From: an uncultured bacterium
Lineage (GTDB): Bacteria > Patescibacteriota > Gracilibacteria > BD1-5 > UBA2023
Direction: 5' to 3'
Length of the DNA: 64,000 bases
Assembly: GCA_903908595.1 (NCBI GenBank)
Contig: CAIVSN010000116.1
Coordinates: forward strand, 454 to 64,453
The translations under genes were made by a program, and so were the position numbers. The notes below the pieces were generated by a model. That model ran no database searches. It was given only the letters and a program-made list of their open reading frames with translations, and was not told the origin of the DNA. Below are positions 10,609 through 62,471 of the stretch, in pieces. Every line of letters starts with the position of its first letter. Positions within the stretch are counted from its first letter, which is position 1.

Positions 10609-10774
10609 TATACCCAACGGGAATTGGTTTTCGGTATTTTACGGTCATAGATTCGGAACAGGTTTCATTTTTCTTCTTTCGGGAGCTTATCGGCAATAAG
10701 TGACCGAAGAAAAAAATGAAAGATGTCCGAATATGTGACTGGAAAAACCGGGAAACCAATTCCCGTTGGGTATA
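10609..10774. repeat. Family-B element, full-length copy. It is a 166-bp imperfect palindrome with 22-bp termini TATACCCAACGGGAATTGGTTT.
   Basis: The left arm and the reverse complement of the right arm align over the whole length. The centre is catttttcttctttcgg...ccgaagaaaaaaatg. Intergenic. Confidence 0.8.
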
Positions 10775-10871
10775 ATCCGAAGCCGAATTCAAGCACCGCG
10801 GTGAGACGTACTGGGGTACGGTGGACGAGGAACGGAGAAACGGACGAGGAATTCGCGTTTTCCCGGGATCC

Positions 10872-14689: not shown

Positions 14690-14811
14690 GAGACTTCTGC
14701 AAAATGATGAAATCCGAAGTCAATTTCGAGCACTGCAGTGAGGCGTACTGGCAAGTACGTCGAACGAGGAGCGGAAAAATTGACAAGGAGTTCGCATTTT
14801 GCAGAAGTCTC
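14690..14811. repeat. Family-A palindromic element, copy 1
   Basis: Termini gagacttctgcaaaatg / cattttgcagaagtctc. Conserved core gatgaaatccgaag...gaggcgtacTGGCAAgtacg...caaggagttcgc. The right end abuts the ATP-grasp gene's stop codon. Confidence 0.85.
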
Positions 14812-20887: not shown

Positions 20888-20963
20888 TGGTGGGTTTGGC
20901 GGGGCTCGAACCCGCGACCTTGGCCTTAAAAGGGCCCTGCTCTACCTGCTGAGCTACAAACCC
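20888..20963 (-). tRNA. tRNA-Lys (anticodon UUU), CCA encoded
   Basis: Minus strand reads GGGTTTGTAGCTCAGCAGGTAGAGCAGGGCCCTTTTAAGGCCAAGGTCGCGGGTTCGAGCCCCGCCAAACCCACCA. The anticodon loop is CTTTTAA. Confidence 0.9.
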
Positions 20964-21124: not shown

Positions 21125-24100
21125 ATGTCCGTATTTCCCAAACCAAGCAGGCTCAAAAAATGGGTTTCCTCACTCCTCATTTTTACCATGTTCGCGAGCC
21201 AGACGGTGCAATTCCCGTTGCTGGTTCCCAGGATCTTCGCGGAAGGCAGCGACGTTCCGAATTTGGTATCGATCATCGTCAGCGAGTCCGTCTTTACTGG
21301 CAACACGAAGGACAAAATTTCCCAATATTCCAAGGATATCCAGGCTTCGATGACCAATACCCGGGTCGTCATCGTGAACGTGCCCGACAACATCGCCCCG
21401 CACAGCATCGCGGCGCTCAATGAAAAACTCTACTACGAAGGCGACGGCGACGGGATTTCCCGGCTCGTGGGGACCGTCCTGATCGGGAAACTCCCGATTC
21501 CCGTGGTCCACAACGGAAGCAAGAGCTTTCTCAGCATCTATCCGTATACCGACTTCGACGAAAAGGTCTTCATGTTCGACGTGGAGAAGGGCTACTACGA
21601 GGCTGGAAGCGGACCCGTGGAGCATGACAGCCCAGAAATCTGGCACGGGGTCATCCAGCCGAATTCCGGGGATTCCGCCACCGACCGGGCCAAACTCGAA
21701 CAGTACCTCGACAAGACGCACGATTTCTATGCGAAGCAGGGGGTGTTCGCCAACATGAGCCAGACGCCCTACGTTTTCTATCTCGACATCACCCACGACC
21801 AGGAAGCCGCGAGCGCTTCCAATTGGAAGGCGTACAACCTCGGCCTCGAATACCTGGAAGATCTTACCTACAAGCGCTTCAACAAGCACCTGGCCAAAAC
21901 GCTGTACGACAAGTTCCAGGGCATGCAGGATTCCACGGCGGATCTGACTTCCGAGGAAAAAGCCGAGCTCGGGGCCGCTGGGGTGGACATTCCGCCGATG
22001 GCCGATTCCATGGATTTTTCCAGTTCCCCGGACATCCAGACCCGCACCGCCATCACCGAGGTAACGAAGCAGTTCTTCGAGATTTTCAACGAAAAATACC
22101 TCGGGGACATCCTCAAGTTCATCTACAACACGGGAAGATACGGCGACGGGAGGGATACCCGGGCCGATATCGCTCCGGTACTGGTATCCAAGCGCGACGA
22201 ATTCATGAAGCGGGTCATTAAGGACAGCAATACCGCGCTCGAAAACAGCATCGACCAGCTCGTGAAATCCGGCCTCGCGATCGATCTGGCCATTCCGACC
22301 GACGTCAAAATCACCAAAACCGGCTCGGGCGCTGACGCCAACAACCCCGTTCCGCCGATATACCGCAATTACTATTATGGGAAATTGGCGAGTTCCATTA
22401 CCAACGCGAAGGAGTGCTCCATCGTCCGGGGTTCTACGCTCCCGGTCGAAGCGAACCGGGGATACAATATCCTCAACGTCGAGCCGGATTTGCAGAAGCT
22501 TACCCAATATTCGACGCTGTGCTTCCCCGGAGGGCTTCCCGCGACGATGGACTGGTGGGGCGGCAACAGCCCGCTCAACGTGAAGACCGATTCGTTCACG
22601 GCGGCGGATTTGGCGATCTTGCAAAGCGCGACGGGCGGAACGGACCTCTCCGCCTACGAAGGCAAGCTCTCCACCAAGTTCGAGCTCAAGGGCAACGTCT
22701 ATAAGGATTACGTCATCCAGACCTTCGATCTCCTGGGGCAAAGCGAAATCTCGCGTACCGGAGCGCTCCGCGTCAATTCCCCGTCGGATTGTCTCGCCTC
22801 GAACTATATCGCGGATCCGTTCGTCGGAAAATCCGAGGATGGGATGTCATTTTCCCAATTCCAGCATCCGCAGACTACGGGGGGGACGCAGTTCGTCTGC
22901 GTGATGCGGGACAGCAAGGGGGTGCTCGGCCACAAGTTTTTCGTGCAATCCAGCACGACCCTTTTCGCGGACGCCATCGCCGACCGGATCAACCCGCCCC
23001 TCTGTACCGTCGTCAAAGTCAATCTGGTGGGAGGTTTTTCCAAGCAGTTCGGACGGCTGTGCGATGAAGAAGTACCGGTGGCGACCACGGGAAACGGAAC
23101 GGGAGAATCCTCCGGAACGGAAACGGTGACGACCGGGACGACCGAGGAGTACGACTTCAAAAAGATATCTTCCTGGATCGTCCACAAATCCCCCACGGAC
23201 GAAGAATACGGGGCCGCCGTCAAAGGCATGACCACTCCTTCCCTCGCGAGCGACGGGGACCGCTACATCGACTTCATGGGCCCTGCGGGAACCGTCCAAA
23301 AAATCGTCTATCCGAATTTTTTCCGGCTGAACAACCAGTCCTACGAGGCCGCGTTGGCAACGGCAGGAACCTGAGGCAGCACGTTTTTTGGCGATCTCGT
23401 GACCGTCGTGGACCACTCCCTCGCCTCGGCCGGCTGAGGCACCGTGGCCAACACTGGGGCCAGCCTGCTTTCCGGCAATATGCCCGACCTGACCATCGAT
23501 ATGGTCAAAGATTCCATCAAGGCGGTCCTCGATAAGAAAAGCGCCGAAATCAACGCCATTATCAACGCGCAGGATCCGGCGCTCCTCACCGGGGATCAGG
23601 CCGCGATCTACCAGCTCATGAATACCGGCGCCTATCCGGCCGCCAACGTCGATCTCTATACGATGGTCGCGAGCAGCGGGAACATGCTCACGACCCTGGC
23701 GGATACCATCCTCTGGTACAACCGCACCAACGCGACGAGCAAGTATTCGTTCATCCTCGAGAATTACCTCGACCGCGACGGGAACCGGGACTACCCGCTT
23801 TCCGGGCACCATTCCGATTATGAAATGGGATACATCGGCGGACCCGGCGACGCGCAGAACATGTACGTCAAGGTCGACCCAGAATCCAAAGGCACCCTGT
23901 CGAAAGACATTACCGACATCCAGGCCGACTACGGTTCCCTCGTAAACCTGCTGGACGCCGCGAACGTCGCCGAGTACAGTCCCGAAGATTCCCAATTCAA
24001 GTGCGGGCCGCCGGAGGGCGTGGTCATTTGGAAATGGCTTCCTGCCGTCTTCTGCTGGCTCGGGACGATTCTCCCGCCGACCATTTCGGCCGGATCCTGC

Positions 24101-27100
24101 GGACCGCAACTCGGCTCCGATACGGACAAGGGGCAAGACCGCGATTTTTTCACTTCGATTCCGGGCACGGACGGCAAGCTCGCCTGGCAGCAAGACCTCG
24201 ACCATAACGGAATCCTCGACGGATACGAGTGGGTCAAGGACGGGGAAATCAAGCTTGCCGCTTCTCTCAAGCGGATCGGATACCGCTCGGGCGCGGCGCT
24301 GACGGCCGATCTCACGAAGGACGGCCGGATTCTCGCCCACGATTCGTACAACCAGGTATTTTTCGACGTCAAGAAAATCACGCTGCTGAAGGGTCAGAAC
24401 GATCTCGAAGGCAATCCGGTGACTTCCGACAAGATCGTCTACGTCCGGGGAGGAACGGGAGCCGCCGGAAGCATCGAGACGCTCAAAAAATACGTTTTCT
24501 TCACGCCGATCGCGGTCCGGGCGGAGGCGGGAACGGCCACCTACGGCATCCAATCCATCGACCGGGACATCGATATCGATATCGTCGCCACCGTCGCTCC
24601 GAAAGACAAAAACGGAAACGTCGCCTTTTCCAAGGATTCCAATCTCATTACCCTCAAAGTCCGGGACGAAGCGCTCAAAATCGGTACGGAAATCCAGGAA
24701 ACCACCGGAACCGGATCCCGGGTCGATCCGACCTTCAAGGCGGGAGACGCGAGCAAAATCACCTTCAAGTTCACGGTATCCGGGAAAAATCCCGAAACGC
24801 CGACGGCCGCGAAATCGCCCATCAAGATCAAAATCCTCGACGACGTCGACGGAACGGAGCTTACGCCGAGGCCGGCGGATATCGGCAGCGACACGTTCAT
24901 TTATGCCGGAAACCTCCTGAAACAGGCCGGGAATTACCGGTTCGAATTCGTCGACGCGGAAGACCGGTACGGCACCGTCATGGTGAACGTCCTCCCGGGC
25001 GACCCATTCAAGATCGAAGCCGTAGCGGCCTCGAACATGTTCGTGAAAGGCCAGAAAAATATGGTCCTCGTAACCGTGAAGGACCGATTCGACAACTACG
25101 TCAAGGGGGACTTGCTCCAGGTCGCCGGCACCGTCGACGGGGGCGCGTATTTCACGGAAAACCACGATGCCGCCAATTCGAAAAGCACCGTCGAAGGCGT
25201 ATTGAGCTTCGAGATGAGCGCCGACGCCGGAAGCACGGGCAACAACACCCACAAATTGGATTTCAGCACCGTCGACAGCAAAGGCGCGACCATCAAGATG
25301 GCCACGCCGCTGACCGTCCAATCCATCGACTACGCCAAGATCCAGGTAAACGTCGCGAACCGCGGCAGCCTGGTGGCCGGAGGTTCCGGACAGACCGTCA
25401 CGCTCAAGATTACCGACAATCTCGGGCAGGTATTGACCGGGTTCAACGGGGTCGCCAGTCTGGATTTTCCGAAAAATTCCGGATTCTTCAGCACGCCGTT
25501 CGTCCAAATCACGAACGGGACCAATTCCGGCGCCCTGACCTTCACTCCGGGAACGGTCGCGATCCTCGATGCCAAAATCGACGTGCAGGTCCCCGGGATC
25601 GTCGACGTGGAAGGCGGAACGCTGAGCATTCTCCCGAACGTGCCGATGCGCGTGGGACTCCTCTCCGATACCGCCAAATTCGAAGCCAAGGTCGGGAATT
25701 CCGCCGGGATTACCGCGCAACTGTTCGACCGGTACGGCAACATCGCCTACAATCACCCGGCCGGAATGTCGGCGAATTTCACGATTCCGAGCGGTTACGG
25801 CAAGTACGGCAGCATCAGCGGGGGGAACGTGCCATTCGCGAACGGGGAAGCCAAGGTCCAAATCAATTCCAGCAGCAGTCCGGGCACCCTCTATTATATG
25901 GTGGAAGTCGCTCCCGGACTCGAAACGAATACCTTTACCATAGAAGGGGAAAATATCGACACGACCCCTCCGACGAAAACTTCCGTCACGATCAAGGGGT
26001 ATTCCAAAAACGTCGCCTACATCGAGAGCTACTACCTGTGGAACGCGGAAAAACTCGCGAAAACCAACTACAACGTCCTCTCCACCACCCTGCTCGGGGC
26101 CGACTACGGAAACGTCACCGTTCCGAACTATCTCGCGGGCGAACTGATTTTCAATTCCGGCAGCTCGTCGATGGCGGTCACGACGCTCCTGGGCAACGCC
26201 GAAAAGCGGGACGAAATCGTCCAGATGACCCCGGGAGGAAAAATCGTCCTCGACCGGGGCCAGACGGCCGAAGTCCAAATCGGTTCCAACAAGAACCGGA
26301 CGACGCTCGATATTTTCGACCCGTTCAAACGGGAAAATATCGGAAGGTTCTATCTCAATACCAGTCCGGCGACGCCGACGTTCGCATGCGCCACGGACGA
26401 AGCGGACGAAATCGACGCCTGCGACTTCCAGGGCAAGGAATCCTATATGGTCCTCAAGGGATTGGGCGAGGCCGAAGTGACGAAGATCGGCAACCGGCTC
26501 AGCCTCGGTTTCGACGGCATTCCCGTCTTCGAAATTTCTCCGGACGGAACGATCACCAAGTATCCGAACGTCACCGTGGAAGCGGACGGGGAAGAAAGCA
26601 GGAATCTCCTTTCGCTCTCCATCGTCAGCAGCGGCATCAAAATCGGACGGCTCGGCATCAAGTGGGACGCTCCGGAGATTATCGTCAGCTCCCCTTCGAC
26701 CCTCGACGCAGCGCTCGCGAGCCACCCCGGCACCATCGTCTACGAGGGCATTTCTCCCCGATACGGCATCAAACAGGACAACCTGGGGAATACTTCCGCG
26801 GGAGACAAGGGCCTCAAGATTTTCGCCCAGAGCGAAGACGTGGAGACGGACCGGGATCTCATAGGATCCTCCGGCAAGCTGGGATACGAGGAATACGCCA
26901 AAAACAAGGGGATCGGATTCGGCGACGGCAACAACACCCAACTCGAATTCGCGAGCCAATCCACCGTCGGGCAATCCGCCAAATCCTTCGCGACCTACTC
27001 CGAAATCGTCATCGGCGACCCGGTCGCGAGGCTTCCGGAAATCCTCTCTCCCCAGAACTTCGACCGAACCCTGGGAAAAAGGCTCATGAGCAGCGCCGGC

Positions 27101-30100
27101 GGAATCATCGAATCCTATTCGACGATCGACTACAACCGGGACAACATGCAGGACATCGTCGTCTTCTACCAGGACGGCAAGGTCGAGCTCCTGCAAAACT
27201 ACCGGTGAACCTACAAGAGCCTCGGCTATCTCCTCTACGTCTTCGACGCGGGCAAGGAACGCAAGGGCGCGGGGGATTTCAACGGCGACGGCTACGGGGA
27301 CTTGGTCATGGTGGACCAGGACGGCAAACTCATCGTCATCCAAAACCGAAAGGGCAAATTCGTCCGCGTACCCGCAAAAATCATCGACCAAGCCGGTGCC
27401 GAAGCCAAAATCGGCGGATCCGTCATGCAGCTGGAAATATTCGACATGGACAAGGACGGCAAAACCGACATCGTCATTTCCGACGATTCCGGAGAATTGA
27501 ACATCCTCTACGGCGGCGGCACTCCGGACGACGTCGTTTTCACCAAAAAATTGCTCGACGACGGCATCGGAATCAAGCTGGGAACCGGGGAATTCACGAA
27601 CGGCGGGGCGATCCGTTTCGACGGCATCAAGGAAATGACCCCGTTCACCCAGACCGGGTACGTCATGGAAACCGAGGCTTCCAGCGCGGACGCCGACGTC
27701 GAAACACTCAGCCTTCCGGACCAAATCCGGCTCTTGGACAGCAAAATCTACTACCAGCAAACCGTCTACGAGGAAGTTCAGAACCCGGCGGAGGCCCAGA
27801 ATATCCGGCTGCTCAGCGGAGTGGGCGACGATCCGGACAATCCCGGCGTCCCTAACCAGGCGCTCGCCGATGAGATCAGCCAGACGATTCTCGATTTGCA
27901 GAACCAGGCGGCGAGCGGCAGCATCGACACGAGCGAACTCACGAACGCGACGATCGAAAAGCAGCGCTCGTTCCTCCGATCCGAATTCGCGGACGGAAAA
28001 GACATAAAAATCGCAAAAAAATATACCGATAGCAACGGCGGGTTCCTTCAGGCGGGGGATCCGATCCTGGTAACGATCGACGTGACCAATGCCGGAAGCG
28101 CTCCCCTTTCCGGAGTCATCTATCTCGACAGTTACGAAAAATCCGTGTTCCAGCCGGGAGAAAACGATTCGTATGCCATTTACGGCGGGTCGGGCAGCAT
28201 GATGGGAACCGGGGCTTTCGCCGCCTTCACGGGAAGCACGTTCTTCGACGAACTGGCAACGGTCGTGGACCATTCATTGTCCGCGGCCTCGGGCGGCTGA
28301 TCGGCCGGAAGCGCCGCCGCCACGGGATCTGCCCAAGACGGGCTCATTGGCACCGGCAGCCTCGACCAGCTCACCGAAGGGGAATTCGACTTCCAATTCG
28401 GAACGCTGACCATCCCCGTGGGCCAGAAAATCACCATCAAATACCTCCTCAAGGCCAATGCTATCTCCGTCGGGAAATTCCACGTGGGCGTACTCGAAAC
28501 CGATGACATATACGGGGACGTCAGCATGAACGCGAACTCGGTCTGCTGAGACCAGGAATGGCTTTGGAAATCCATCGTACCGACTCCGAGAACGTATTCG
28601 GCAAGAACCCTCAGGGATATCCCGGAGAGCGGCGACGTAGCCGGTACCCAAAAGGGCAAGTTCACCGATTTCAACGGCAACGGATCCCCGGACTATATCG
28701 ACCTCCTTTCCGGAACGGGCGGTAACGATTCCATGGCGTCCTCGCTCTGGGATCCAACGCGACACGGGATCCTGGTTTTCCGCGAAACCTCGACCGATAC
28801 CGGGCTGGACGGAACGAATTTCGAAGTCGGACGGGTCGTCTCCAATTCCGAAACGGGGTACGTCCAACTCAACCCCGTATCCGTAAAGGAAGACGTTCCC
28901 GTTCTCGCGACGCCGGCGCTCGCCAACGGGACGATCAACGGAAACGAACTCGGCGCCGGAAGCGTCAGCAACGTCCTGACCGGAAGCGTTACCAATACGC
29001 TGATCACGACCGCCTGCGGACAACCGGGCACTTCCGTTTCGGATCTCCGGCTCACGGGATACCGGCAGATCTATCATCCGAGCGTCATGTCGGACATTAC
29101 GGGAAACCTCTCGCTCGTCGCCGTCGGAACGTCGAAAACCCTCGACGCTTCTGGAAGCGTCATCGGTACGGGCGACTGCATGATCGACATCAATTCGACG
29201 TCGAATCCGGCATGGGACGGTACCAAGGTCACCGGGCTCGGCTGGAAACTCCTCACCAAGGGAACCTTCCAGCACTTCAGCCTCGGGGGCACGCAATCCA
29301 ACCTCATCGCCGAGTCCGTCGGAATTCCCGACAGCCACGAACCGCTCGGAAGCGATTTGTTCACGTTCGAAAGCGATGGGTCGCTCATCGGGGGAACCGT
29401 CGACATCGGGGGCATGTCGGACGAAAACATCGACAAGGTCAACGGGGCCATCGATACCATCGTCCAGGGCCTCGGGTGCGGATTCGGAGGAGGTAGCTGC
29501 CTCTCCATGCCGATGAACTGGGCCCCTCTCGCCCCGGGTTCCGCTCCGGTCGTCATGGGATTCCCCATCGGGGGACTCAGTCCGTCGACGGGTTTCCCGG
29601 TATTCAGCAGCCTCACGGGCATCCAGACGATGTGCGGCAAATCGCCTTGCTGCATACCGAGCGTTTTTCCCATAAGCCCCCTCGCCTACGTACCCGGACC
29701 GGCTTGCGGATCCCCGAGCGCCGGAGGATACCTGGGCACCTGGGCGCCAACCAACACGTTCCGCTTCTATATCACCCCGACCATCACGGGAGCCGTGGGA
29801 ATCGCCGCGTGTTTCGGAGGTACGGCCATGGTTACCGGACGAATACCGCCACAGGCCGTATCGCCGCTCGTGCCGGGAGGCAACTGCGTCGTCGCGGCCA
29901 AGCCGCTCCTCGGCTGCAAGGACGACGGTTCCGACGGGACGTTCGAGGACTTGTGAAGCACCGATAACGGAACCCTCAATGCCGGATCCTGCAAGAACCA
30001 ATCCGACGAGGAAACCGTTTCCGCCGAAGACCAGGAAAAAATCCGAGCCTTCGTCCGCGGCGACAATACCTTCGTGAGCGATATCGTCAAAAATGCCGCG

Positions 30101-33100
30101 GGCCGCGGAAGCATGATTATTCCGAACGGTCCCCTGCTCTCCATCTGAGGCCGGGGCGGAAGCGGAGCCGGCAGCTTCGAGCTGGCCATCGATCTCAAGA
30201 GCATCAAGAACTTCGATATCGGCATCATCACCAAAATCAGCAACCAGCGGGTTTCCGCGTTCCCGGATTTCATCATGGACTGGGTCAACCGCCAATTGGA
30301 AGAAGTCGCCAACAAACTCACGAGCCTCCCGACGCTGTATATCATCAAGCCGGATTTCCGAGGCGTCATCGACGGCAACTGGAACGGGTTCACGGAGAAG
30401 CTCGGGAAAGCCTACGGTACCGGAAAGAAAAACGGCAGTCCGGTACTCGGCAACGAAAACGCCGGCCGGAGCATTTCCGGCGTCAAGTCAGCCTACGAAT
30501 TCATGTCCCGGCTCCCCCTTATCAAATTCGAGAAAACGACCCTGGACATCTCCTATCCGGACATCGGCCAGGAAGACCTCAACAAGGCCCTCAAGAATCT
30601 CAAGAATACCAAGGCCCAATGGGAGCGGGAGATTTCGAGCAAGAAAGCCCTGTACGCGGGCACGTTGACCGCTACCGGCATGGACGCGAGCATTATCGTC
30701 CGGTCGGAATGACTTATCAGCAGCATCAACCAGAACATCCGAACGATAGAGGAATACAAGAAATTCCCGGAAAAACTCGCGAAGTACCTTACCTGGAAGG
30801 AACGGTATGCGGCGCAATTGCTCTGCAATATCACGGCAATCCAAAACATGCTGGACAGTTTCATTACCAAGAATGCCATCCGCTTCAAGGCCTGGGTCGA
30901 GTTCTTCGAACTGCTCAAGAACATCCTCAAGGGCTGGCAGCTCATCCCGGACCTCTTCTACAAGAACGAGGCCGAATGCGGGGTGTGCCGCAACGAGCGC
31001 TACGACGCGAAGCATTTCATGTTCAAGCTCATCAAGGCCATCATACCGCCGCTTCCGATCATCAAGTTCCCGAAGTGGCCGGACATCATCTTGGACCTCC
31101 ACAACGTTCGGCTCGGCCTCCGCATCGCCATGCCGGAATTCGTGTTCCACCCGACCCCGATCGTCCTTCCGAGATTCCCGAATCTCGCGTTGCCGACGCT
31201 TCCGAAACTGGGCATCGGTTTGCCGAGCATTCCGACGCTTCCGAGCCTGCCGCCGTTACCGGAATTGCCGGATATTCCGTCGCTTCCGCTCATCACCCTT
31301 CCGGAACTCCCGCCGCCGCCGACCATCCCGAAGCTCTTCGGAGCCATCAAATTCACGTTGAACATCCTCAAGATCATCGCGAAGGTCCTCTGTATCATGC
31401 GTTCGAATCCGTTCGTGCCGGAATGGCGCGCCGGAGACCAGATTGCCCAGATTACGGAACGGCAGGGCAAAATGAAGCTCGACTTCCTCAATATCGAATT
31501 CCCGCAGTTCAACGCGAGCTTCGTCGATGCCATCAAGGTGACGACCTACGTGAATTTCGAGTTCCAGATCGACTTCCTCCTCGAAATGGCCAAAGCCACG
31601 TTCGAACCGATCAACGCGTTCACCTCGAACCTCTCGAACATCGTTCCGAACGCGACCAAGGACATCCTTCCGAACAAAGTGGACCTCCGCGGGCTCAATC
31701 CGGGCAACCAGAAAATCCAAATCGGTCCGACCGGAATGGAAGGCAAAAACCCGTTCGTCAAGCAATACGCCCAAACGTTGGCCCAAGCATTCGTTACGAC
31801 GATCAAGCAAGGACAATTCTACGCGAACGAATCGGCGGCCTACGAGGAAATACGGGAGAATCTCGCCGACGAGCTCGCCCATACCCACGCGACCCCGGGA
31901 ACCCCGGGATTCGCCATCCTCGAAGAAATGCGGGAAGGACTCCGGATTCGCGGCGATGCCGAAGCCGAAGCCCTCGCGACCGAACTCCGAAGGGACAACG
32001 ACGAAAAGTTCAACCTCGCGAACGGTTTCGTCAAATCGGAGATGCACGAAATCACGGAACTCCAGGCCCAACTCCACCTCGTGCAAACCGGCAAGAAGGA
32101 CCTCTCGGATATTTTCGGGACCCGGAAAAGCGGGGGAAATGCCGAATTGACGGATTCCGCGAACCCGTACAGCACCGAATCGGAACTTCCAGATTTCACC
32201 AAATTCAACGAACGGGCCTACGTCGCCTATTCCGAACTCCTCGCACCGAAGCCGGACGACGAACTCGTGACCATGGGAAAAAATCTCAAGGACAGCATGC
32301 AAGCCTATTCCGCGGAAGCCGAGAGGAAGTCCGCCGAATACTGAGCCGGAACTGACATTGCCGGCGGAGGCGAACTCGCGAATTACGAATACCGCGGCAT
32401 TTATACCAAGGACAACGGTCGGCAGATCCGGCTCTTCGATTACACCAACGACCTCATGGGAGACGAGAGAGCCGTCCAGGTCGACCGGCTCGGAAACGGG
32501 GCGATAGAATATATCTACCTGAGCGGGGACGGATTGTATCTCAAGACCAAACTGGGGAATTCCGGAACCTCGGCGACGAGCGGAAGCGCTTCCACGGGCG
32601 GAACCGGTTTCTTCGACGAACTCGGCACCGTCGTGGACAATTCCCTGTCCATGGCTACGGGAGGAACTCCGACTGCCAACACCGGAGGTGGGACTTCGGG
32701 CAGCGTCACGACCAGCATTCCCGTCTACCGGCTTTCCGGCATCATCGATCTTCCGAATTCCGAAACGTTGCGGCCGACCGCGCCGAACCGTTTCGTGGAA
32801 AGATTCGTGGCTTCCGGGGAAATCAACTTCTCGTTCCGGCCGGCCGACTTGGTCAACGACACGATTTTTCGAATGGAATTCTACGATTATATCGATCGCT
32901 TCGACCTGCGGATGAGTGGGAAAGACTGGAAGGATATCGCGCCGACCACCCGGGTTTCCTACGTGGATCTCGTCCCGGAATTCACGGGCGAAACCGTGAC
33001 GGACGCTTCCAATACCGGCATCATCCTCCAAAAACCCTATGCGAAATACTTACAGGGAACCGGGAACGGATTCATCAGCGGGGCGGACTACCGCACCCTC

Positions 33101-34630
33101 TGAGCCGGCTCGAAGATTCAGGTTGCCGCGAGCAAATCGATCTATGCTGACGGAGGCGGAGCGAAAATCGCGTACAAAATCGCCGACAGCGCGGCTTCCG
33201 TTACGGGCAGCACGGTGACCATACCGAATTCCGGAGAACTCAAATTCTTGGACAACATGGACATGGAAGTCCTGAACGGAAACGTCATCCTCATTAACGA
33301 GAGTTCGAGCCCCGTACGGCGGCCACAGGATTTTCAGAAACTGAACGGGCTTCCCGTCATCCTGGGTCAGAAAATAGAAATTCCCGCGACGACGGCCCGG
33401 CTCAATATCGAGTATTACAACGGCGCATCGCTCCGCATGGACGGGCCGAGCCTCTATGAAAGCCACGAGCTCGGAGCGAAATCCGACGAATATGACGTGT
33501 CGCTCCGCCAGGATAACGGCTGGTACTACGCCAGGCTCGAAAGCGTTTCGCCGAGCCCCCGGACCAGTACGCGGATCACGCTGCTTTCGCCACAAATGGA
33601 AGCCGACAAGGAAGCTCCGCTCATCGAGGTCGCGGGAGGATTCCGGGCGCCGGTCTATCTCGACCGTGCCATAGACTTACGCGAACAGATTACGGACGTT
33701 TCCGGCATCAGCGACGTGTTTATCGACACGGATCTCGCGGCCGATTCCGACCGGGATGGGCAAATGGACAACGACCGGGATTCCGACGCGGCCGGATCGA
33801 TATTCAGAAAGGGCAGCTCCAATCTCGAATGGATCGTCAAAGCCCAGGATCGACTGTTCGAGAAGAAAATCAAAATCTGGGCCGGGGACGAAAGCGGAAA
33901 TTTGGCAGGAACAGAGACGGATCTCCGCATCTATGCCCCGGTTCCGAATATTTCGACCCAATCGGGAACCACGATTTTCGGAAACCTCGACGAGTCGTTG
34001 GACGGCGAACCGACGGATATCGTCCGGTACCGCAACGGCAAGATTTCCCCTATCGGCAACGCGGCGCTTACCCAGAGCGGCGGGGAATTCCTCAATACCT
34101 TCGGCACGAATACCGGAATAGCCATCAGATGACCGTCGGGCGAATTGGCAAAAATCAACGAAAACACCGGAAAACTCACCCTGAGCGGCAGCGAGAACGA
34201 ATTCGTCGTCCTCCCGGCCAACGCCGACGTCCCGATGCGGATCGAAATCCAGAAGAAATCGGATCATTCCGTCCTCTACTCGCAATCCGTAGCACTGGGA
34301 AGCGCCGGGAAGATAGAACCCGTGTCCAGCCTCGCGGAAGCTCTCGCCAAAGCGAAATGAGGCCTCGGCGTACGTCTCGATGCCGGATGGAATTTCGTCC
34401 GGAACCCGGGCAATAGCCCGTCGCTTCCAGGAGGCATATTCGTCACGGACGCGGACATGAAACCGGTGTTCGGTATCGCCAAGGATGGCAACGTATACTT
34501 CCTGAAATCCTCTGGACTCAGCCTGAAATACGGAACCGAACAGGACTACTTCGTCATCGAAGTCCGCGACGCGGACCATCTCGTCGGAACCCTCTATTAC
34601 GTACTCGATGCCGAATATGTCATCAAATAG
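21125..34630 (+). CDS. Giant secreted surface protein (~4,500 aa) with FG-GAP/VCBS-like, Ig-like and DUF11/CARDB-like segments and a Pro-rich region
   Basis: Nine frame-2 track ORFs (21068-23374, 23444-27208, 27302-28300, 28733-29956, 30275-30712, 30818-32344, 32456-33103, 33215-34132, 34145-34360) are separated only by 12 in-frame TGAs. The first TAA/TAG in frame is TAG 34628-34630. Signal-like MSVFPKPSRLKKWVSSLLIFTMFASQ. FG-GAP-like GDFNGDGYGDLVMVDQDGKL and DMDKDGKTDIVISDDSGEL. Pro-rich LPSLPPLPELPDIPSLP. Confidence 0.85.
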
Positions 34631-35835: not shown

Positions 35836-36465
35836 ATGTACGGAACATTCGTCAAAGGACTTTCCAAAAAAAACGACAAATACGGGTTCGTAAACGAAAA
35901 CGAAGTGCGGATCGCCACCGGCGTGACCTTCGTTTTTGGGCTCTTTTCGCTCTTCCTCGTGCTGCTCAAATGAGAATTCACGATTCCGCTCGTCCTGCTT
36001 TCGCTCGTATGGCTCGACTTCGTCGTCAAGGTGTTCGTTTCCCCGGAATACTCGATTTTTGGAAGGTTCGTCCGGCTGTTCCTCAAAAAAGAACCCTACT
36101 GGATCGGATCCGTCCAGAAGCGGTTCGCCTGGTCGATCGGACTGGTGATATCCACGATTGCCGTGCTGTGCCTGATATTCCAATCCGGGCTGTTCGTCGA
36201 CGTGGCGCCATTTTTCCAAACCGCGTACGAATATATCCAAGCGCAGCTGAAGCAGGCGACGTTCATCAAGCACCCAAACCAGCTGATGTATACGCCGCTC
36301 AATCCCCCGATCCTACTCTGTATCCTCTGCCTCGTGTTCATGTGGTTCGAATCCGTCGTCGGCTTTTGCGTCGGGTGCGCCATCTATGCCTGGGGAGTGA
36401 GGAAAAAATTCTGGAAAGCATACGAAGGACAGAACTGCACGGGCGGGATGTGCCGACTGGACTAA
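35836..36465 (+). CDS. DUF4395 family membrane protein
   Basis: ATG 35836. Joins track ORF 36031-36465 across one TGA. NENEVRIATGVTFVFGLFSL...CVGCAIY is typical of DUF4395. Ends in TAA. Confidence 0.6.
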
Positions 36466-36471
36466 AGCTCG

Positions 36472-36506
36472 AAATGCCTTCCGAAATCGGAAGGCATTTT
36501 TTATTT
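36472..36506 (+). terminator. Intrinsic terminator
   Basis: aaatgccttccg-aaat-cggaaggcattt, followed by a T-run. Confidence 0.75.
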
Positions 36507-36552: not shown

Positions 36553-37116
36553 ATGCCTATGATGGAAAGATACCTATCGGAGATGCCGAGCAGGAGCGAA
36601 GTCCGGCAGTCGGAACAATCCATTCTGGAAGCCCGAACGTTCGAACGCCTGCTGGAATCCATGCCTGAAAAAAAGAGCAAAGCCGTGACCCGGCTGGACC
36701 GTACCGATTTGTTCAAAAACGACATCGCGTACCTCCGTTTCGTCAAGGAAAAAAAAGAAAACGGCAAGACGATTCAACGGACGGACATCAAGGTTTCCCT
36801 CTTCGTTCGGGGGGTCCACGGACCCCTCCTCTTCTGTACGGCGAGCTTGGAAAACCCTTCGCGTGAGGGATCCCACAATACCGGAAACTGCATCATGCGG
36901 CTCCCCATTATCGGCAACCGCGACGGGATACTCCTGGGGCGGAGGGCGTTTGACAATCTCGCCAACGAAGTGGGATACGGCCTCACGGAAGAGGAGCAAG
37001 AGATGCTGTCGGAAAAATTCCTCGACGACATCCAATGGATACCCGACTACCACGAGCGGTACCGGAACCTTTGAAAAGCGGTCCGGGGATTCGTCAGCGA
37101 CATTTTCGCAAAATAA
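36553..37116 (+). CDS. Hypothetical protein (187 aa)
   Basis: Taken from track ORF 36538-37074, starting at ATG 36553. Reads through TGA 37072-37074 to TAA 37114-37116. Confidence 0.5.
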
Positions 37117-37204
37117 TTTGTACATCCCGGCGGGAATCTGATATCATTCCTTCGCCATGCCCAATTTCGGGCAAATCAACCAATTTTGGGAAAAGGAGAA
37201 ACAA

Positions 37205-37438
37205 ATGGCCACAATTACCATTGTGAAAAAAGGTTCCGGGATCCGCGTCCGTGCAATCACGACCGGTGGGTACGGCAGCCAAGAAGGTTACACCGACAGC
37301 AAAGGCATGGTACGATTCAACGACAGTGCCAATAGGACTCAGATTCAGGTCTGGAGTCCGGGCGGCTCGCGTTGGGTCAATACCGGCGACGTGCTTTCCT
37401 CATTACGGGGAGATCACGACTGCTACATGCCCTTCTGA
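37205..37438 (+). CDS. Small hypothetical protein (77 aa) with standard-code hallmarks. It ends in TGA.
   Basis: AGGAG 37194-37198 lies 6 nt before ATG 37205. The ORF closes with TGA 37436-37438, and an intrinsic terminator follows 8 nt later. Under code 25 the frame would stay open to TAA 37841-37843. Confidence 0.45.
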   Translation: MATITIVKKGSGIRVRAITTGGYGSQEGYTDSKGMVRFNDSANRTQIQVWSPGGSRWVNTGDVLSSLRGDHDCYMPF

Positions 37439-37445
37439 AGGATTA

Positions 37446-37474
37446 CGGCCCCCGTTATGCGGGGGCCGGTTTTT
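37446..37474 (+). terminator. Intrinsic terminator
   Basis: cggcccccg-ttatg-cgggggccg, followed by gttttt. Confidence 0.75.
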
Positions 37475-37480
37475 GTGTGG

Positions 37481-37598
37481 AACCCCGGCAAAACGCGAAC
37501 TCCTTGTCAAATTCTGCTTCCTCGCTCAACGTACCTATCGGTACGCCTCGCTACGGTACTCGAATTTGGCTTCGGATTTCATCGTTTTGACGGGGTTC
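37481..37598. repeat. Family-A palindromic element, copy 2 (inverted orientation)
   Basis: Termini gaaccccggcaaaacg / cgttttgacggggttc. The central hairpin is cgtacC-GATA-Ggtacg on the reverse strand. Confidence 0.85.
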
Positions 37599-37628
37599 TG
37601 GGGTTTTTGCAAAATATTTCTGTCAGAC

Positions 37629-37829
37629 ATGAACTTGTGCCTTCCGCTTCGGCAATACCTTGCCATATCCGGGAAACAGGCGGAATCTACGGCGGAACAA
37701 CCCACCGTGAGCCGAGACCAGTATCCGCTTGCGCAAGGGGTACGTGTCGAAGTGCCGGGCAATGCCCGGGTACGAATTGACGGCGGAAACGAACGACTGC
37801 TTTTGGCACCAAAAGATTTCGCTCGTTAA
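37629..37829 (+). CDS. Possible small protein (66 aa)
   Basis: ATG 37629, TAA 37827-37829. MNLCLPLRQYLAISGKQAESTAEQPTVSRDQYPLAQGVRVEVPGNARVRIDGGNERLLLAPKDFAR. It sits in a generally open GC-rich frame, so support is weak. Confidence 0.25.
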   Translation: MNLCLPLRQYLAISGKQAESTAEQPTVSRDQYPLAQGVRVEVPGNARVRIDGGNERLLLAPKDFAR

Positions 37830-37836
37830 TTCAAAA

Positions 37837-37972
37837 GTATTAAATGGGTTTTAACTTGACACTACCTCAATCAGGATAAATCGTTATTACATTCCTTAGT
37901 AGAGAGTAAAACTGAACCGATTTTTCGAGTACATTTCGTATAGTAGGCGTCAGGTTAAAACCCATTAAGTAT
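37837..37972. repeat. AT-rich segment bracketed by a 13-19-bp inverted repeat (AATGGGTTTTAAC / GTTAAAACCCATT)
   Basis: gtattaaatgggttttaac (37837-37855) pairs with gttaaaacccattaagtat (37954-37972). The ~100-nt interior is much more AT-rich than its surroundings. Confidence 0.6.
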
Positions 37973-38078
37973 TATTTCCGAAAGGGAAATTATCTTTTTC
38001 CATTGACCGGACCAGTTATTCCGTATGATACTCCCAAAAACGCCTATACTCTCTCAAATTCCGTAATCCCTTCCGAAC

Positions 38079-38507
38079 ATGAAAAAACGATTGCTTCCCA
38101 TTCTTTCGACACTTTGCCTCATGGGCCTACTCGTCGCCGAATCGACGACCTATGCGTTCCCCAAGTCAAATTTTTCGGGAAAAACCGAAATCACCCAGCG
38201 CTACGGCGAAATGACGAAAGCTTACGAGTCCAAATACTCCGCTTGGGAAATCAAAAAATCGAAGCGCGTCAAAACCATGGAAAACAAGATTTTTATCGCC
38301 TACAAGAATCTCGCCAAAGCGAAAACTTCAAAACTGAAAAAGCGGTATGAGACCCAAATCGTCCAATTCCAGAAGAATTTGGACGCGGAATTGCTTCGAT
38401 TGAGCAAGCTTCCCAAGCCTCCGGCAAACCTTTCTCCAAAAACGGATAGCCAAAACTCGGGGATGGACGCGATAGAATCGGCCATCAAGGAAAAACTGAA
38501 AAAATAG
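38079..38507 (+). CDS. Small secreted Lys-rich protein
   Basis: Intact track ORF. Signal peptide MKKRLLPILSTLCLMGLLVAESTTYA. Ends in TAG. Confidence 0.6.
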   Translation: MKKRLLPILSTLCLMGLLVAESTTYAFPKSNFSGKTEITQRYGEMTKAYESKYSAWEIKKSKRVKTMENKIFIAYKNLAKAKTSKLKKRYETQIVQFQKNLDAELLRLSKLPKPPANLSPKTDSQNSGMDAIESAIKEKLKK

Positions 38508-38607
38508 CCGAAACGCATCAGTACTCCCCTTTTCCACCAAAGAACCCCCCCCCCTTCAGAAACAAGCCGGACGGATTTCCAAAGCCAATCCTTCAATTTT
38601 CCAACCT

Positions 38608-39813
38608 ATGAAACATTCATATATCCCAAAAATCGCGTTCTCGATCGCGTTCGTCGCATTTTCCTTTTCCACTGCTTCCGCAGAAGGCCTCGTTTACGAT
38701 TTCGACCGCGTCGACGTGAAATTCGCTACGGAATTCCAGGTCATGCCCGCCATCGAGAGCAACGGGACCAGCTGGGCAACCGAATTGGCCGGCGGTACTG
38801 CCGACCCGCTCACCGTCACGTACGGAATCGTCGACCTCATCAAAAACGATCAGCCCGCCTGGTCCGAAGAATTCGTCAAGGTTACTGGCAAAAACGGATC
38901 GGAACGATTTTTGGTGAATTCCGGATCGCCGGAATTCTACGAATGAACCGACAAGCTGAGGCATAACCGGTCGTTCTTTTGGTCGGCAAAAAAACTCGTC
39001 GGAAACTCGGTCATGAAAGATTTCAGCGGAACCGTCAAGTCCATCGTGCTCGAAATGAAGCTTTCGGAAGACCAGAAAATCGATTCCGCGAGCCTTTCCT
39101 TTTCGGACAACGGCCAGCAGGCCAGCGAAGATTTCTGGTATCCGGAACGGAAGGGGAATTTTCAAAATTATTACGAATATTCGAAAGGTACCGTCGCCGG
39201 TACGACGGTACCGGCTTCGAATCCGTGCGAAGAAAGCATCGCGTACGACGGCAACGAATACCCGGTCAAGCTCATGCCGGACGGAAAATGCTGGACGACG
39301 ACTATGAAGCATCTTCCCGTCAAGCACATTCCTTGGAACGCCGAGGGAAGCCAAAGCGGTTCGTCCTACGTGGGCAATTCCTGGAACTACGGGGATACCG
39401 AAGCGAATCTCCCGACGAACGGCACCGGCGCGGTATCCGGAAGACTGTACAGCTGGTACGCGGCCATGGGACTGGACGAAGGATCGGCGGAGACGGAGGA
39501 ATCCTCGAACCGAACCGTCCGTAGCGTATGTTCGGCTTTGGGAAGCGGATGGAAACTCCCGACCGAGGAACAATGGAGGACTTTGGAAAAAGCCGGGGGC
39601 ACGAAAGAAATCATCACGCACTATCCCGGATATCAGGACTCCACGGGAACGTTCCGGGATTATGGCAAGGAGAAAAATTCTTGGGCCGCCTGGAGTTCGA
39701 CCTCCAAGGGAAGCGAAGCGTACTTTTACGCGAATTTTCAGGGGAATCACTATCTGGGATACGGCGACATCGGGAAGAAGCAGGGAGCTTCGGTGGTTTG
39801 CGTCAAGAATTAA
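38608..39813 (+). CDS. Secreted protein with a C-terminal Fibrobacter-succinogenes-major-paralogous (FISUMP) type domain
   Basis: Frame-1 track ORFs 38608-38946 and 39013-39813 are joined by TGA 38944-38946. Has a signal peptide. GRLYSWYAAM...CSALGSGWKLPTEEQWRTLEKAGG...AWSSTS matches my recollection of TIGR02145-type domains. Ends in TAA. Confidence 0.65.
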
Positions 39814-39848
39814 GTGGTTTCGGATGGGCTGAAAAGAGTCATATTCAC

Positions 39849-39881
39849 AAAAAAACGCTCGTTTGGTATGAGCGTTTTTTT
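39849..39881 (+). terminator. Intrinsic terminator
   Basis: aaaaacgctc-gtttggtat-gagcgttttt, followed by tt. Confidence 0.7.
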
Positions 39882-39903
39882 GAAGTTTCCATTTTATACC
39901 CAA

Positions 39904-40028
39904 CGGGAATCTCGTTAAAAACGCGAACTCCTTGTCAAATTCTCCGCTCCTCGTTCAACGTACTATCGTACGCCTCACTACGGTGCTCAAATTTGACTTC
40001 GGATTTCATCGTTTTAACGGGATTCCCG
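39904..40028. repeat. Family-A palindromic element, copy 3 (inverted orientation), abutting a family-B half-site (39895-39910)
   Basis: Termini cgggaatctcgttaaaaacg / cgttttaacgggattcccg. The central hairpin is cgtac-GATA-gtacg. It overlaps the stop codon of the methylase gene. Confidence 0.85.
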
Positions 40029-43514: not shown

Positions 43515-43633
43515 GAGACCCTGGAAAAATGATGAAATTCGAAGTCAATTTCGAGTACCGAAGGGAGGCGTACGAGAGTACGCCCGCAAGGAACGGAAAA
43601 ATTGACGAGAAGTTCGCATTTTTCCAGGGTCTC
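43515..43633. repeat. Family-A palindromic element, copy 4, in the pnp leader
   Basis: Perfect 17-nt termini gagaccctggaaaaatg / catttttccagggtctc. The central hairpin is cgtac-GAGA-gtacg. Confidence 0.85.
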
Positions 43634-46654: not shown

Positions 46655-46778
46655 ATGGCGGGATTGGATTTGGTATTTTATAATTGAATAATTTGCAAAG
46701 TCAAAAGATAGCGCCGAGGGATTTTTTGTTTTGACATTCTTTCCGAAGAACTGGATGGGTGTAAAGATAATCCGGGAG

Positions 46779-46823
46779 TATACCTAACCGAATCTATGGC
46801 CATAAAATACCGAAAACCAAATT
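46779..46823. repeat. Family-B arm fragment (inverted)
   Basis: The reverse complement, aatttggttttcggtattttatggccatagattcggttaggtata, aligns to the left arm of the 10609-10774 copy. Confidence 0.65.
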
Positions 46824-46825
46824 CG

Positions 46826-46991
46826 CTTAGTCTCTAAGCAAAAATAAGTTGCAACTTTGCCGCGTATGCATGAGGTATCAGGCAAGGCGACTCTTACGCA
46901 GTGGAGCGGGCTCCACAAGTATGAGGCAACGATGGCTGATATCTTATGCATACGATGGGAAAGTGTAAGTTATTTTTGCTTAGAGACTTAG
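46826..46991. ncRNA. Rod-like structured element of ~165 nt. It is either a candidate ncRNA or a palindromic mobile element.
   Basis: A 22-bp closing stem (cttagtctctaagcaaaaataa / ttatttttgcttagagacttag), a 19-bp inner stem with two G-U pairs (cgtatgcatgaggtatcag / ctgatatcttatgcatacg), and an apical hairpin gtggag-cgg-ctccac. Confidence 0.4.
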
Positions 46992-47134
46992 GTATATTTT
47001 TGGAATTTGGGGAAAGTGACAATGCAACCATGGGAATGACACGCTCAAAATCGAATTTGACAATCGCGATACGGTCCATATATTGCGGACGGCTCAACCA
47101 AAATCAGTTGGAGGCCGCAAAATAGGAGTATACC

Positions 47135-47485
47135 GTGGAAATACAAATATACCTGATTGGCTTCGATCTCTGGCTTCTCGTCCTCACGACCCTGCTCGGA
47201 ATGACGGTAAGCACGATCGGATATGTGAAACGTTTGCCGAACGGGAAACGGTTCGATATCGTCAAAGCATGGAAAACGTCAATCATTGCCACAATGTTGC
47301 TATTGTGGGGATTGATCATCGCGCTCATGGTCTGGTTTTCTTACGAACCGGAATCGTTCGGCAAGTTTTTCTACTATCCCATCCAACTCTTCTCTGCCGG
47401 AATCGTCGGCGAAACGTTGGCGCTCGGGTTGTCCTGGATTCTCAAAGGGCATCGCAATTCCCTTCTGAATCTCGGGAAAACCTGA
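47135..47485 (+). CDS. Small membrane protein (116 aa) with standard-code hallmarks. It ends in TGA.
   Basis: AGGAG 47124-47128 lies 6 nt before GTG 47135. It has about four hydrophobic helices. The ORF closes with TGA 47483-47485, and an intrinsic terminator follows at 47520. Under code 25 the frame stays open to TAA 48992-48994. Confidence 0.5.
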   Translation: MEIQIYLIGFDLWLLVLTTLLGMTVSTIGYVKRLPNGKRFDIVKAWKTSIIATMLLLWGLIIALMVWFSYEPESFGKFFYYPIQLFSAGIVGETLALGLSWILKGHRNSLLNLGKT

Positions 47486-47519
47486 AATCTTCCCCGGGAA
47501 ACCCCCGTGGAAACCCCCA

Positions 47520-47551
47520 ATCCCGGAACGGCGACGTTCCGGGATTTTTCT
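47520..47551 (+). terminator. Intrinsic terminator
   Basis: aatcccggaacg-gcga-cgttccgggatt, followed by ttt. Confidence 0.75.
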
Positions 47552-47624
47552 GAATCGGGAATCCCGGGATTCCATTTTTTGAAAATCCCCGTACAATGCC
47601 TGCCAATCCTAATCATAACCCATT

Positions 47625-48437
47625 ATGAACACGCCACCATTTTCCCTCGCGCTCGGCGGATGAGCCGCCCGGGGACTCGCCCATGTCGGAATCATACGGT
47701 ATCTCGAAGAACACGGGCTCCGCGCGGAAGAAGTCTCCGGAACGAGCATGGGATCCATCATCGCGGCGCTCTACGCCTATTGAAAGACGTCCGAAGAAAT
47801 GCGGAATATCTGTGCCGATATCAAGTTCGTCAAGCTGATCGATCTCGATCTCAAGAAATGACTCCTCAAGGGGAACAAGATCGAAAAGCTTCTCGAATCC
47901 ATATTCTGAAACGCGAAGATCGAGGATTTGAAAATGCCCTTGAAAATCGTTTCCGCCAATATCGACACCGGAGAAAAACGCGTTTTCGAAACAGGTCCGG
48001 TCGTCGACGCCATCCGTTCTTCCATCAGCATTCCCGGAATCATCATGCCGAACGAACTCGGCCTCGAACGGCTGGTTGACGGGGGCATCGTCAACAATCT
48101 CCCCGTGGAAATCCTCAGGGGCAAAAACGTCATCGCCGTTTCGGTCTTACGGGACGTCTCCCGTCCAATCGACATGAAACTCAAAGTCCTCGGGTTCGAG
48201 ATGAACCAATCCATTTTCTGAATCGGGTATCAGATCTTGCAGAAAACCATCGACATCATGGTAAACCAGAACGAAAAAAGGTCGTTGGAATCGGAAAAGC
48301 ATATCGTCCTGCTCGAACCGAAATTCCCGGGAATCGATTATTACGAATTCCAGAAGTACGACGAAATCATCGGCATCGGATACGCTACGGCCATGAACGC
48401 CGGGCTGATTGGCCGATTATCCGAAAAATTCGAATAA
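47625..48437 (+). CDS. Patatin-like phospholipase
   Basis: ATG 47625. Frame-0 track ORFs 47928-48221 and 48237-48437 are joined with upstream sequence across 5 TGAs. Motifs: LALGG[TGA]AARG (GGGxRG), GTSMGS (GxSxG), DGGIVNNLP (DGG). Ends in TAA. Confidence 0.85.
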
Positions 48438-62268: not shown

Positions 62269-62351
62269 GTCTTTCGGTATTTTTTTCCAAAACCCGAAAA
62301 AATCCCCAAGATTCCCCTTTTGAGGAATGTTCATTTTGACTATAATCCTCC

Positions 62352-62471
62352 AAAATCCTGCAAAACGATGAAATCCGAAGCCTATTTCGAGCACCGTAGC
62401 GAGGCGTACTGGCAAGTACGCCGAACGAGGAGCGCAGAAATTGGCAAGGAGTTCGCGTTTTACAGAAATTT
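62352..62471. repeat. Family-A palindromic element, copy 5
   Basis: Termini aaaatcctgcaaaacg / cgttttacagaaattt. The central hairpin is cgtacT-GGCA-Agtacg. It lies just upstream of proS. Confidence 0.85.

Follow-up and report, generated by a model that had tools for sequence, protein, structure and literature searches.

An open reading frame (ORF) of 77 sense codons, hereafter ORF77, lies on the forward strand of a 64,000-nucleotide (nt) stretch of DNA, referred to here as the window, which covers positions 454 to 64,453 of contig CAIVSN010000116.1 (assembly GCA_903908595.1) from an uncultured bacterium of the Gracilibacteria (lineage BD1-5, UBA2023). ORF77 is carried in a self-contained expression cassette consisting of a promoter, a structured 5' leader, a strong Shine-Dalgarno (SD) sequence, the ORF, a closing UGA and an intrinsic terminator (Table 1). 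The AGGAG, the ATG, the 77 codons, the TGA and the terminator all lie where the first-pass annotation of this DNA had placed them, and the arrangement goes beyond chance, since it recurs in every relative read. If TGA is taken as a sense codon, the frame comprises 212 codons and continues through the terminator hairpin and a dispersed repeat to TAA 37841-37843, again as that annotation had described.

Table 1. Coordinates of the ORF77 cassette and of other features of the window
Feature	Position	Strand	Details
Sigma-70-like promoter (consensus match only)	37119..37147	+	TGTACA, 17-nt spacer, TATCAT, TG just upstream
Structured 5' leader	37154..37190	+	Conserved GCCAUGCCC...GGGCA stem-loop; downstream arm (CCAAUUUUGGG) just 5' of the SD
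Shine-Dalgarno AGGAG	37194..37198	+	6-nt spacer to ATG 37205 (-11 to -7); duplex -8.9 kcal/mol
ORF77	37205..37435	+	77 sense codons
Closing TGA	37436..37438	+	Invariant in 10 distinct orthologues
Intrinsic terminator	37446..37474	+	Stem-loop 37446-37468, 10 pairs (9 G-C), 3-nt loop; T-run 37470-37474
Sense TGA, internal control	37072..37074	+	Inside upstream gene 36553-37116, 130 nt before ORF77
ORF116, second candidate	47124..47580	+	AGGAG 47124-47128, GTG 47135, 116 codons, TGA 47483-47485, hairpins and T-runs 47520-47580
Giant gene	21125-34630		~4,500 codons (4,501); 12 in-frame TGAs; GC3 0.76
Dispersed repeat ('family A'), ~110 nt	37490-37615, 39918-40025	+	Copies 77-89% identical
Dispersed repeat ('family A'), ~110 nt	62333-62461, 14700-14802, 43526-43630, 10774-10867	-	Copies 77-89% identical

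The putative promoter agrees with the consensus at 9 of 12 positions and is TG-extended, and some 7-9 nt separate the end of its -10 element from the conserved leader. Similar -35/-10 pairs, at an equal distance from the GCCAUGCCC leader, were recognized by eye in the 8 other family members with readable upstream sequence. The local stem of the leader is invariant across 9 family members and is without covariation; the minimum-energy fold in 6 of these 9 is a longer hairpin, the arms of which differ in sequence and remain complementary. An AGGAG or GAGGAG-type motif stands 5-9 nt before the ATG in every family member read except L016, which has only a weak purine-rich stretch at this position; the AGGAG of the family is conserved and the flanking bases vary. 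An upstream ATG (37157) was considered as the true, near-leaderless start and rejected, as it is missing in several orthologues and falls in frame 0, 1 or 2 elsewhere. At the other end of the cassette, seven bases separate the TGA from the terminator stem-loop, which is the strongest of 13 terminator-like sites between 34 and 44 kb (-26.8 kcal/mol, z = -3.4). In the orthologues read, the terminator stems differ in sequence yet remain complementary and are followed by a T-run, as befits intrinsic terminators. The whole ORF77 transcript folds well (z = -4.3).

Comparative evidence shows that this genome decodes UGA as glycine (genetic code 25). With TGA as sense, the longest ORF grows from 5.4 to 13.7 kb. 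In alignments to solved structures, three of the four TGAs of the sigma-70 homologue stand opposite Gly, including in its EGN(I/L)GL motif, and both aligned TGAs of the patatin do so, including in the GGGxRG motif. Among orthologues of pnp and of the neighboring methyltransferase gene each TGA is lineage-specific, and most stand opposite a Gly encoded by GGN; the premise of the first-pass annotation that UGA means Gly is upheld by this interchange and by the Gly alignments. Twenty-nine confident genes (13,879 codons) contain 51 in-frame TGAs, which are spread along the genes and make up 4.5% of their Gly codons; the TGA share of Gly codons is 4.5-5.8%. These genes end in TAA (15) or TAG (14) and none in TGA. 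T follows only 2 of the 51 sense TGAs, whereas it follows 24% of GGA codons and 17% of codons overall.

An internal control for this decoding lies in the gene just upstream of ORF77 (Table 1). Its sense TGA corresponds to GGN in the orthologous loci L001, L002 and L003 and to TGA in L010, and the 13-14-residue tail that follows (K.V..WV..) is conserved up to a TAA or TAG stop. The GGN codons in relatives and the conserved tail leading to a real stop thus place a UGA that is decoded as Gly 130 nt ahead of ORF77. Loss of release factor 2 (RF2) has been reported for code-25 lineages (PMC8629427; gTranslate preprint, bioRxiv 10.64898/2026.05.24.727570). Within the window and the loci fetched from relatives, searches for RF2, tRNA-Gly(UCA), transfer-messenger RNA (tmRNA), smpB and the 16S tail found none.

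Approximately 30 gene starts were inspected, and a convincing SD was found at ORF77 only. One other start reaches -8.4 kcal/mol in its duplex with the anti-SD through a G-run that is not of the AGGAG type, and all the rest are at -5.2 or weaker. The observation of the first-pass annotation that other starts lack an SD and that other genes close with TAA or TAG (29 of 29) thus extends to the larger set. In most genes the ATG is immediately preceded by a T-rich leader with TTTTTCC(C/T) or TTTTTTTT at its end (for example, 10476-, 18179-, 43466-, 57803- and 61667-); this leader may be the lineage's own initiation signal. The related SR1 and Peribacter are listed as SD-scarce and without a CCUCC anti-SD (PMC10783764); no rRNA was detected within the window by an Rfam-type scan. 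A strong SD in an almost SD-free genome suggests, by analogy with rpsU of Flavobacteria, that ORF77 may be translated by a special route or in a special state of the ribosome.

Comparison with relatives establishes ORF77 as a genuine, vertically inherited and old gene. A database search returned five clusters at 74-100% identity to ORF77. In recoded relatives from at least nine distinct lineages, the gene has a UPF0020 methyltransferase gene and pnp as neighbors, and the syntenic loci include three metagenome-assembled genomes labelled Patescibacteria, Gracilibacteria and 'Peribacteria'. Its neighbors in the window are the same as in these relatives, apart from a 2.5-kb insert, and every family member checked sits on a recoded contig. 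The ratio of nonsynonymous to synonymous substitutions (dN/dS) is 0.1-0.3 in pairwise comparisons, synonymous divergence (dS) between lineages being about 1 and saturated, and 59 of the 110 variable sites fall at third codon positions. The low dN/dS and the third-position pattern of substitution indicate that ORF77 is coding and under purifying selection. In GC content (0.55) and third-position GC content (GC3, 0.65) it resembles the rest of the genome. Each of the 29 reference genes has a higher codon score than ORF77 (-0.05), which in turn scores far above its read-through stretch and the other frames (both about -0.55 to -0.6).

The product is predicted to be a stand-alone transthyretin-like beta-sandwich of 77 residues. 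An AlphaFold model (AF2, 15 sequences) is a seven-strand beta-sandwich with a mean predicted confidence (pLDDT) of 87, compact and ending in ...HDCYMPF, and the protein is weakly basic. Since the last strand occupies residues 69-73, the fold would be complete at about residue 74, just before the TGA. The best Foldseek matches to the model are transthyretin-like, NOMO and MG domains, with template-modeling (TM) scores of 0.58-0.63 and E-values of only 0.1-0.5, and Pfam bMG3 matches ORF77 with E = 0.031, below the cut-off. A profile search added further stand-alone homologues of 77-79 amino acids at 30-55% identity, bringing the family to about 15 small homologues, and the family profile also matches repeated domains within large surface proteins. 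The sample covers about 15 lineages, found partly via code-11 gene calls. Pfam, NCBIfam, PHROGs and PADLOC contain no significant match for ORF77, for ORF116 or for the basic 77-residue family described below. A phage genome collection and IMG/VR yielded nothing, and contigs from JGI metagenomes yielded no confirmed further orthologues. No Rfam family reached the gathering threshold in the window, and matches between 37050 and 38100 were at chance level.

The closing TGA is conserved with the protein. In all ten distinct ORF77-type sequences the ending is ...P-F-TGA, with the TGA at an identical codon position and a hairpin plus T-run behind it. Across the same ten orthologues none of the 23 four-fold degenerate sites in columns of invariant residues is unchanged, and the Pro codon two positions before the TGA occurs with all four third bases. 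The same ending, TGA plus a terminator, is found in five distant members, which lie on further recoded contigs (L016, L018/19, L020, L021 and L022); of these, only L016 lacks an AGGAG-type SD. Orthologues closing with TAA or TAG, which the first-pass annotation had named as the observation that would speak against its account, were sought, and there is none among the ORF77-type sequences or the five distant members. The lone TAG belongs to the paralogous P0030-type branch, of which three copies were read: TGA closes the copies in L014, which is from the genome of the window, and in L010, and TAG closes that in L001, where its close relative L010 has TGA.

An ordinary Gly codon would drift to GGN, as the sense TGAs do, and this is not seen; thus, the codon does not behave as an ordinary Gly codon. 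An ordinary stop would drift to TAA or TAG, which are one or two changes away, and neither occurs in the ORF77 branch; thus, it does not behave as an ordinary stop. A neutral relic would decay like the synonymous sites, which is not seen either, so that UGA specifically is selected at the natural C-terminus. These patterns of substitution show that the UGA closing ORF77 is itself under purifying selection as the boundary of the ORF. It is located exactly at the end of the protein fold and of the family. The peptides that would be read after the TGA are unrelated between lineages and merely spell out the hairpin; a functional read-through extension was therefore rejected.

The TGA-ended small ORFs contain approximately 175 Gly codons, none of which is an internal TGA, compared with an expected share of 4.5-5.8%. 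The first-pass annotation had described ORF77 as written in the standard code, and this count agrees with it. The probability of finding no internal TGA is about 1e-5 to 2e-4 if codons are independent, a figure that is weakened by the relatedness of the sequences, by code-11 gene calling in the source databases and by a possible codon bias linked to high expression. The terminal UGAs have no local sequence context in common: any of the four bases (A, G, C or T) comes next, and the hairpin follows at a distance of 5 to 27 nt.

ORF77 has company. In ORF116 (Table 1), 6 nt separate the AGGAG from the GTG, and the product has several hydrophobic segments and is membrane-like. Its codon score (0.18) is typical of the genes of this genome, compared with -0.39 for the stretch past its TGA; with TGA as sense, the frame would extend to 48994, crossing the patatin and PAP2 genes out of frame. 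In a database of 5.8 billion proteins, ORF116 has an identical match and no other. Outside the window, at L014 3178-3720 in the same genome and about 1.6 kb past proS, an SD-led P0030-type paralogue is paired with a basic 77-residue ORF, and the pair recurs at L001 382-940, L010 2915-3470 and L020 3700-4070. The basic ORF (motif KRFVKGFIIAG...KSQKKRHR) is unrelated to ORF77, starts 28-50 nt after the paralogue and always ends in TGA plus a terminator, with TGA TGA in L020. The ORF116 candidate and the basic family together suggest a small class of genes, not an isolated case. The first-pass annotation had labelled ORF77 'copy 1', and a second TGA-ended, SD-led ORF does exist; no second copy of ORF77 was found in the window by tblastn, the paralogue P0030 lying outside it, and the 'copy 2' of that annotation is probably the unrelated ORF at 47135-47485. 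A codon-model scan for drops in coding signal after a TGA, in which ORF77 itself falls below the upstream score threshold, marked three further TGAs on the forward strand (1267, 35070 and 48672), which may be noise.

The usual picture of codon reassignment is of a completed process: with UGA read as Gly and RF2 lost, no gene should need a terminal UGA. Here, a family of small genes in code-25 bacteria has kept its terminal UGA under selection while its synonymous sites were randomised. The explanation we favor, tentatively and at somewhat below an even chance, is that ORF77 specifies a non-stop or conditional message. In its own cell the message would effectively be stop-less. Ribosomes would meet a slowly decoded UGA, at which they would either be released by a non-canonical route or insert Gly and go on for another 10-20 codons until the terminated transcript runs out at its 3' end, where ribosome rescue by tmRNA-SmpB or by an ArfB-type hydrolase would free them. 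By either route, the yield of clean 77-residue protein would depend on the capacity of the cell for UGA decoding and rescue. We regard a hybrid of the two as the most economical form, in which UGA would be a conditional end and the gene would report on UGA decoding, much as prfB uses an in-frame UGA to sense RF2.

A stop-less message fits the absence of a usable stop before the terminator. Several observations weigh against it. Any sense codon would serve a non-stop design, so a further premise, for example that the codon is decoded slowly or allows partial release, is required to account for the invariance of UGA. Avoidance of in-frame stops is weak: between the TGA and the T-run of 18 loci there is no in-frame TAA or TAG, versus six and two in the other two frames, which gives approximately P = 0.04 for loci that are related rather than independent. 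The ORF77 beta-sandwich has no similarity to ArfA or BrfA and no basic tail, and one copy in the paralogous branch (L001) tolerates a true stop, TAG. Furthermore, ArfA and BrfA act via RF2, which is reportedly missing in code-25 lineages (PMC8629427; bioRxiv 10.64898/2026.05.24.727570).

Of the three explanations offered by the first-pass annotation, a non-stop transcript and context-dependent UGA termination both survive and are strengthened by conservation of the codon, while recent import does not hold up. Context-dependent termination, which we consider possible but doubtful, would give UGA two meanings, Gly inside ordinary genes and a true stop at the end of a small class of SD-led messages abutted by terminators, through a retained or unrecognised release activity or through position near the mRNA's 3' end. 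Conservation of UGA exactly at the C-terminus of the family, the interchange of TGA and TAG in one paralogous-branch copy and the lack of internal TGA among the Gly codons of the TGA-ended small ORFs are all consistent with a true stop, as is a geometry like that of an ordinary gene here, in which a TAA is followed after 5 nt by a terminator (36463-36500). The depletion of T after sense TGAs (2 of 51) points the same way. Ciliates use position-dependent stops. A further precedent outside bacteria is mtRF1, which acts at AGA and AGG in just two human mitochondrial ORFs (PMC9810596). However, a second meaning needs a release activity, and RF2 is reported lost in code-25 lineages (PMC8629427; gTranslate preprint). 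Dozens of sense UGAs would have to be spared, including the UGA on the same strand that, 130 nt upstream, is read as Gly, yet the terminal UGAs share no context, even in their distance from the hairpin. A plain stop also predicts frequent UAA and UAG among orthologues, which are never seen.

That the TGA is a tolerated relic, predating the code change and kept because a short tail or rescue is harmless, is improbable and strongly disfavoured. The read-through tail would indeed be short, because the terminator follows at once, and small non-essential proteins can tolerate C-terminal additions; but the TGA is kept in 10 orthologues and 5 distant members in which no four-fold site of the 23 is invariant, and sense TGAs elsewhere turn over freely. 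It is very improbable that the cassette is meant for a setting in which UGA is a stop and SDs are used, be it a standard-code host or prey cell or one created by an invader that supplies RF2 or removes tRNA-Gly(UCA). ORF77 would then be a code-state sensor, its TGA preventing a proper product in the normal producer cell. A preference for TGA over GGN and TAA/TAG alike would thereby be accounted for, and this reading agrees with the co-occurrence of standard signals (sigma-70-like promoter, SD, terminal TGA, no internal TGA, terminator) in a genome that otherwise uses none of them and with the scarcity of SDs and the lack of the CCUCC anti-SD in SR1 and Peribacter noted above (PMC10783764). Nevertheless, ORF77 matches no phage or defence family, occupies a conserved chromosomal neighborhood and encodes a plain beta-sandwich without toxin or enzyme features. 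To our knowledge, moreover, these bacteria are not known to deliver nucleic acids to hosts. A recent horizontal import from a standard-code donor, or a non-coding small RNA, is hardly credible. The codon score of ORF77, below those of all 29 reference genes, and the stable fold of its whole transcript could be taken to favor one or the other, but the gene has syntenic orthologues in at least nine recoded lineages separated by a dS of about 1, its dN/dS is 0.1-0.3, its GC (0.55) and GC3 (0.65) are genome-typical, its substitutions follow a coding pattern, its predicted fold is confident and it has no Rfam match.

[quoted passage not shown] These position-dependent stops are eukaryotic and rely on poly(A)-proximal factors and eRF1, and we know of nothing equivalent in bacteria. 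The closest analogues of ORF77 are arfA of Escherichia coli and brfA of Bacillus subtilis, rpsU of Flavobacteria, and the mitochondrial ORFs served by mtRF1; they share its logic, and ORF77 belongs to none of them. The mRNAs of arfA and brfA lack a stop codon since a hairpin or terminator lies inside the ORF, and the level of the product is thereby tied to trans-translation (PMC3989581, PMC6881298, PMC8012679). Like ORF77, these genes have about 60-77 codons and a hairpin or terminator that truncates the message before a usable stop; under code 25, no TAA or TAG occurs from residue 77 to the T-run at any of the 18 loci (18/18). In contrast to ArfA and BrfA, ORF77 has no Pfam or NCBIfam match and is a predicted beta-sandwich rather than a basic peptide fitting the mRNA channel, and whereas the codon before the hairpin is not fixed in arfA and brfA, one specific codon, UGA, is conserved at the end of the fold in ORF77.

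In Flavobacterium, which is SD-blind, a strong SD leads one gene only, rpsU, encoding bS21 (PMC9976891, PMC13000453). Like ORF77 it is a lone small gene that keeps a strong SD, which implies a special ribosome state and autoregulation; unlike rpsU, ORF77 matches no ribosomal-protein model, and rpsU has no unusual stop codon. In human mitochondria, AGA and AGG close COX1 and ND6 through a dedicated factor, mtRF1, so that there, as with UGA here, just a few ORFs are closed by a codon that is not a standard stop in the code concerned (PMC9810596). However, AGA and AGG have no cognate tRNA in mitochondria and never occur inside genes, while the genes neighboring ORF77 contain dozens of UGAs that are actively decoded as Gly. 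The in-frame UGA of prfB, with its SD, and the selenoprotein UGA with its selenocysteine insertion sequence (SECIS) element resemble ORF77 in having a conserved in-frame UGA as a site of regulated decoding, but neither fits. Selenocysteine insertion was rejected on account of the variable spacing (5-27 nt), unrelated loops, the T-run after the hairpin and the lack of a downstream stop or conserved extension, and prfB-like frameshifting on account of the lack of a slippery CUU U site and an SD that lies 240 nt upstream of the UGA.

The finding is real and conserved, and it is not explained by any described bacterial mechanism. A context-dependent role of UGA as a stop, if retained, has a direct bearing on the ways in which genetic codes change and on intermediate states that are ambiguous. 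Should the dual meaning prove true, UGA would be the first codon described in bacteria to serve as both sense and stop, which would be categorically new for bacteria and would imply an unrecognised release mechanism where RF2 is thought to be absent. If, on the other hand, stop-less messages are deliberate, output would be linked to UGA decoding or rescue, a device open only to recoded organisms. A single C-terminal peptide offers a testable handle on translation termination in uncultured bacteria of the Candidate Phyla Radiation (CPR). For annotation, code-25 gene callers will extend TGA-ended ORFs by 35-135 spurious codons.

Several repeats and structured elements lie near these genes. Copies of the dispersed repeat (Table 1) end, as judged by eye, in the inverted termini GAACCCCGGCAAAACG...CGTTTTGACGGGGTTC. 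Two direct copies flank the 2.5-kb segment (37480-40013, two genes) that is missing in relatives, where ORF77 directly faces the methyltransferase gene, and in L009 and L010 related copies come after the ORF77 terminator. An inverted repeat (37833-37976) of 28 nt, 82% complementary and with 88 nt between its arms, lies in the AT-rich stretch that separates the repeat from the next gene. A tRNA-Lys gene (20888-20963) lies on the strand opposite the giant gene, approximately 160 nt upstream of the chosen start of the latter. Just upstream of ORF116, a low-GC gap holds a long and very stable hairpin (46819-46996), about 175 nt in length, whose 59-nt arms show 80% complementarity (-95.6 kcal/mol, z = -11.4). 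An Rfam scan of 46700-47650 gave no match, and the hairpin could be a miniature inverted-repeat transposable element (MITE) or an undescribed structured RNA.

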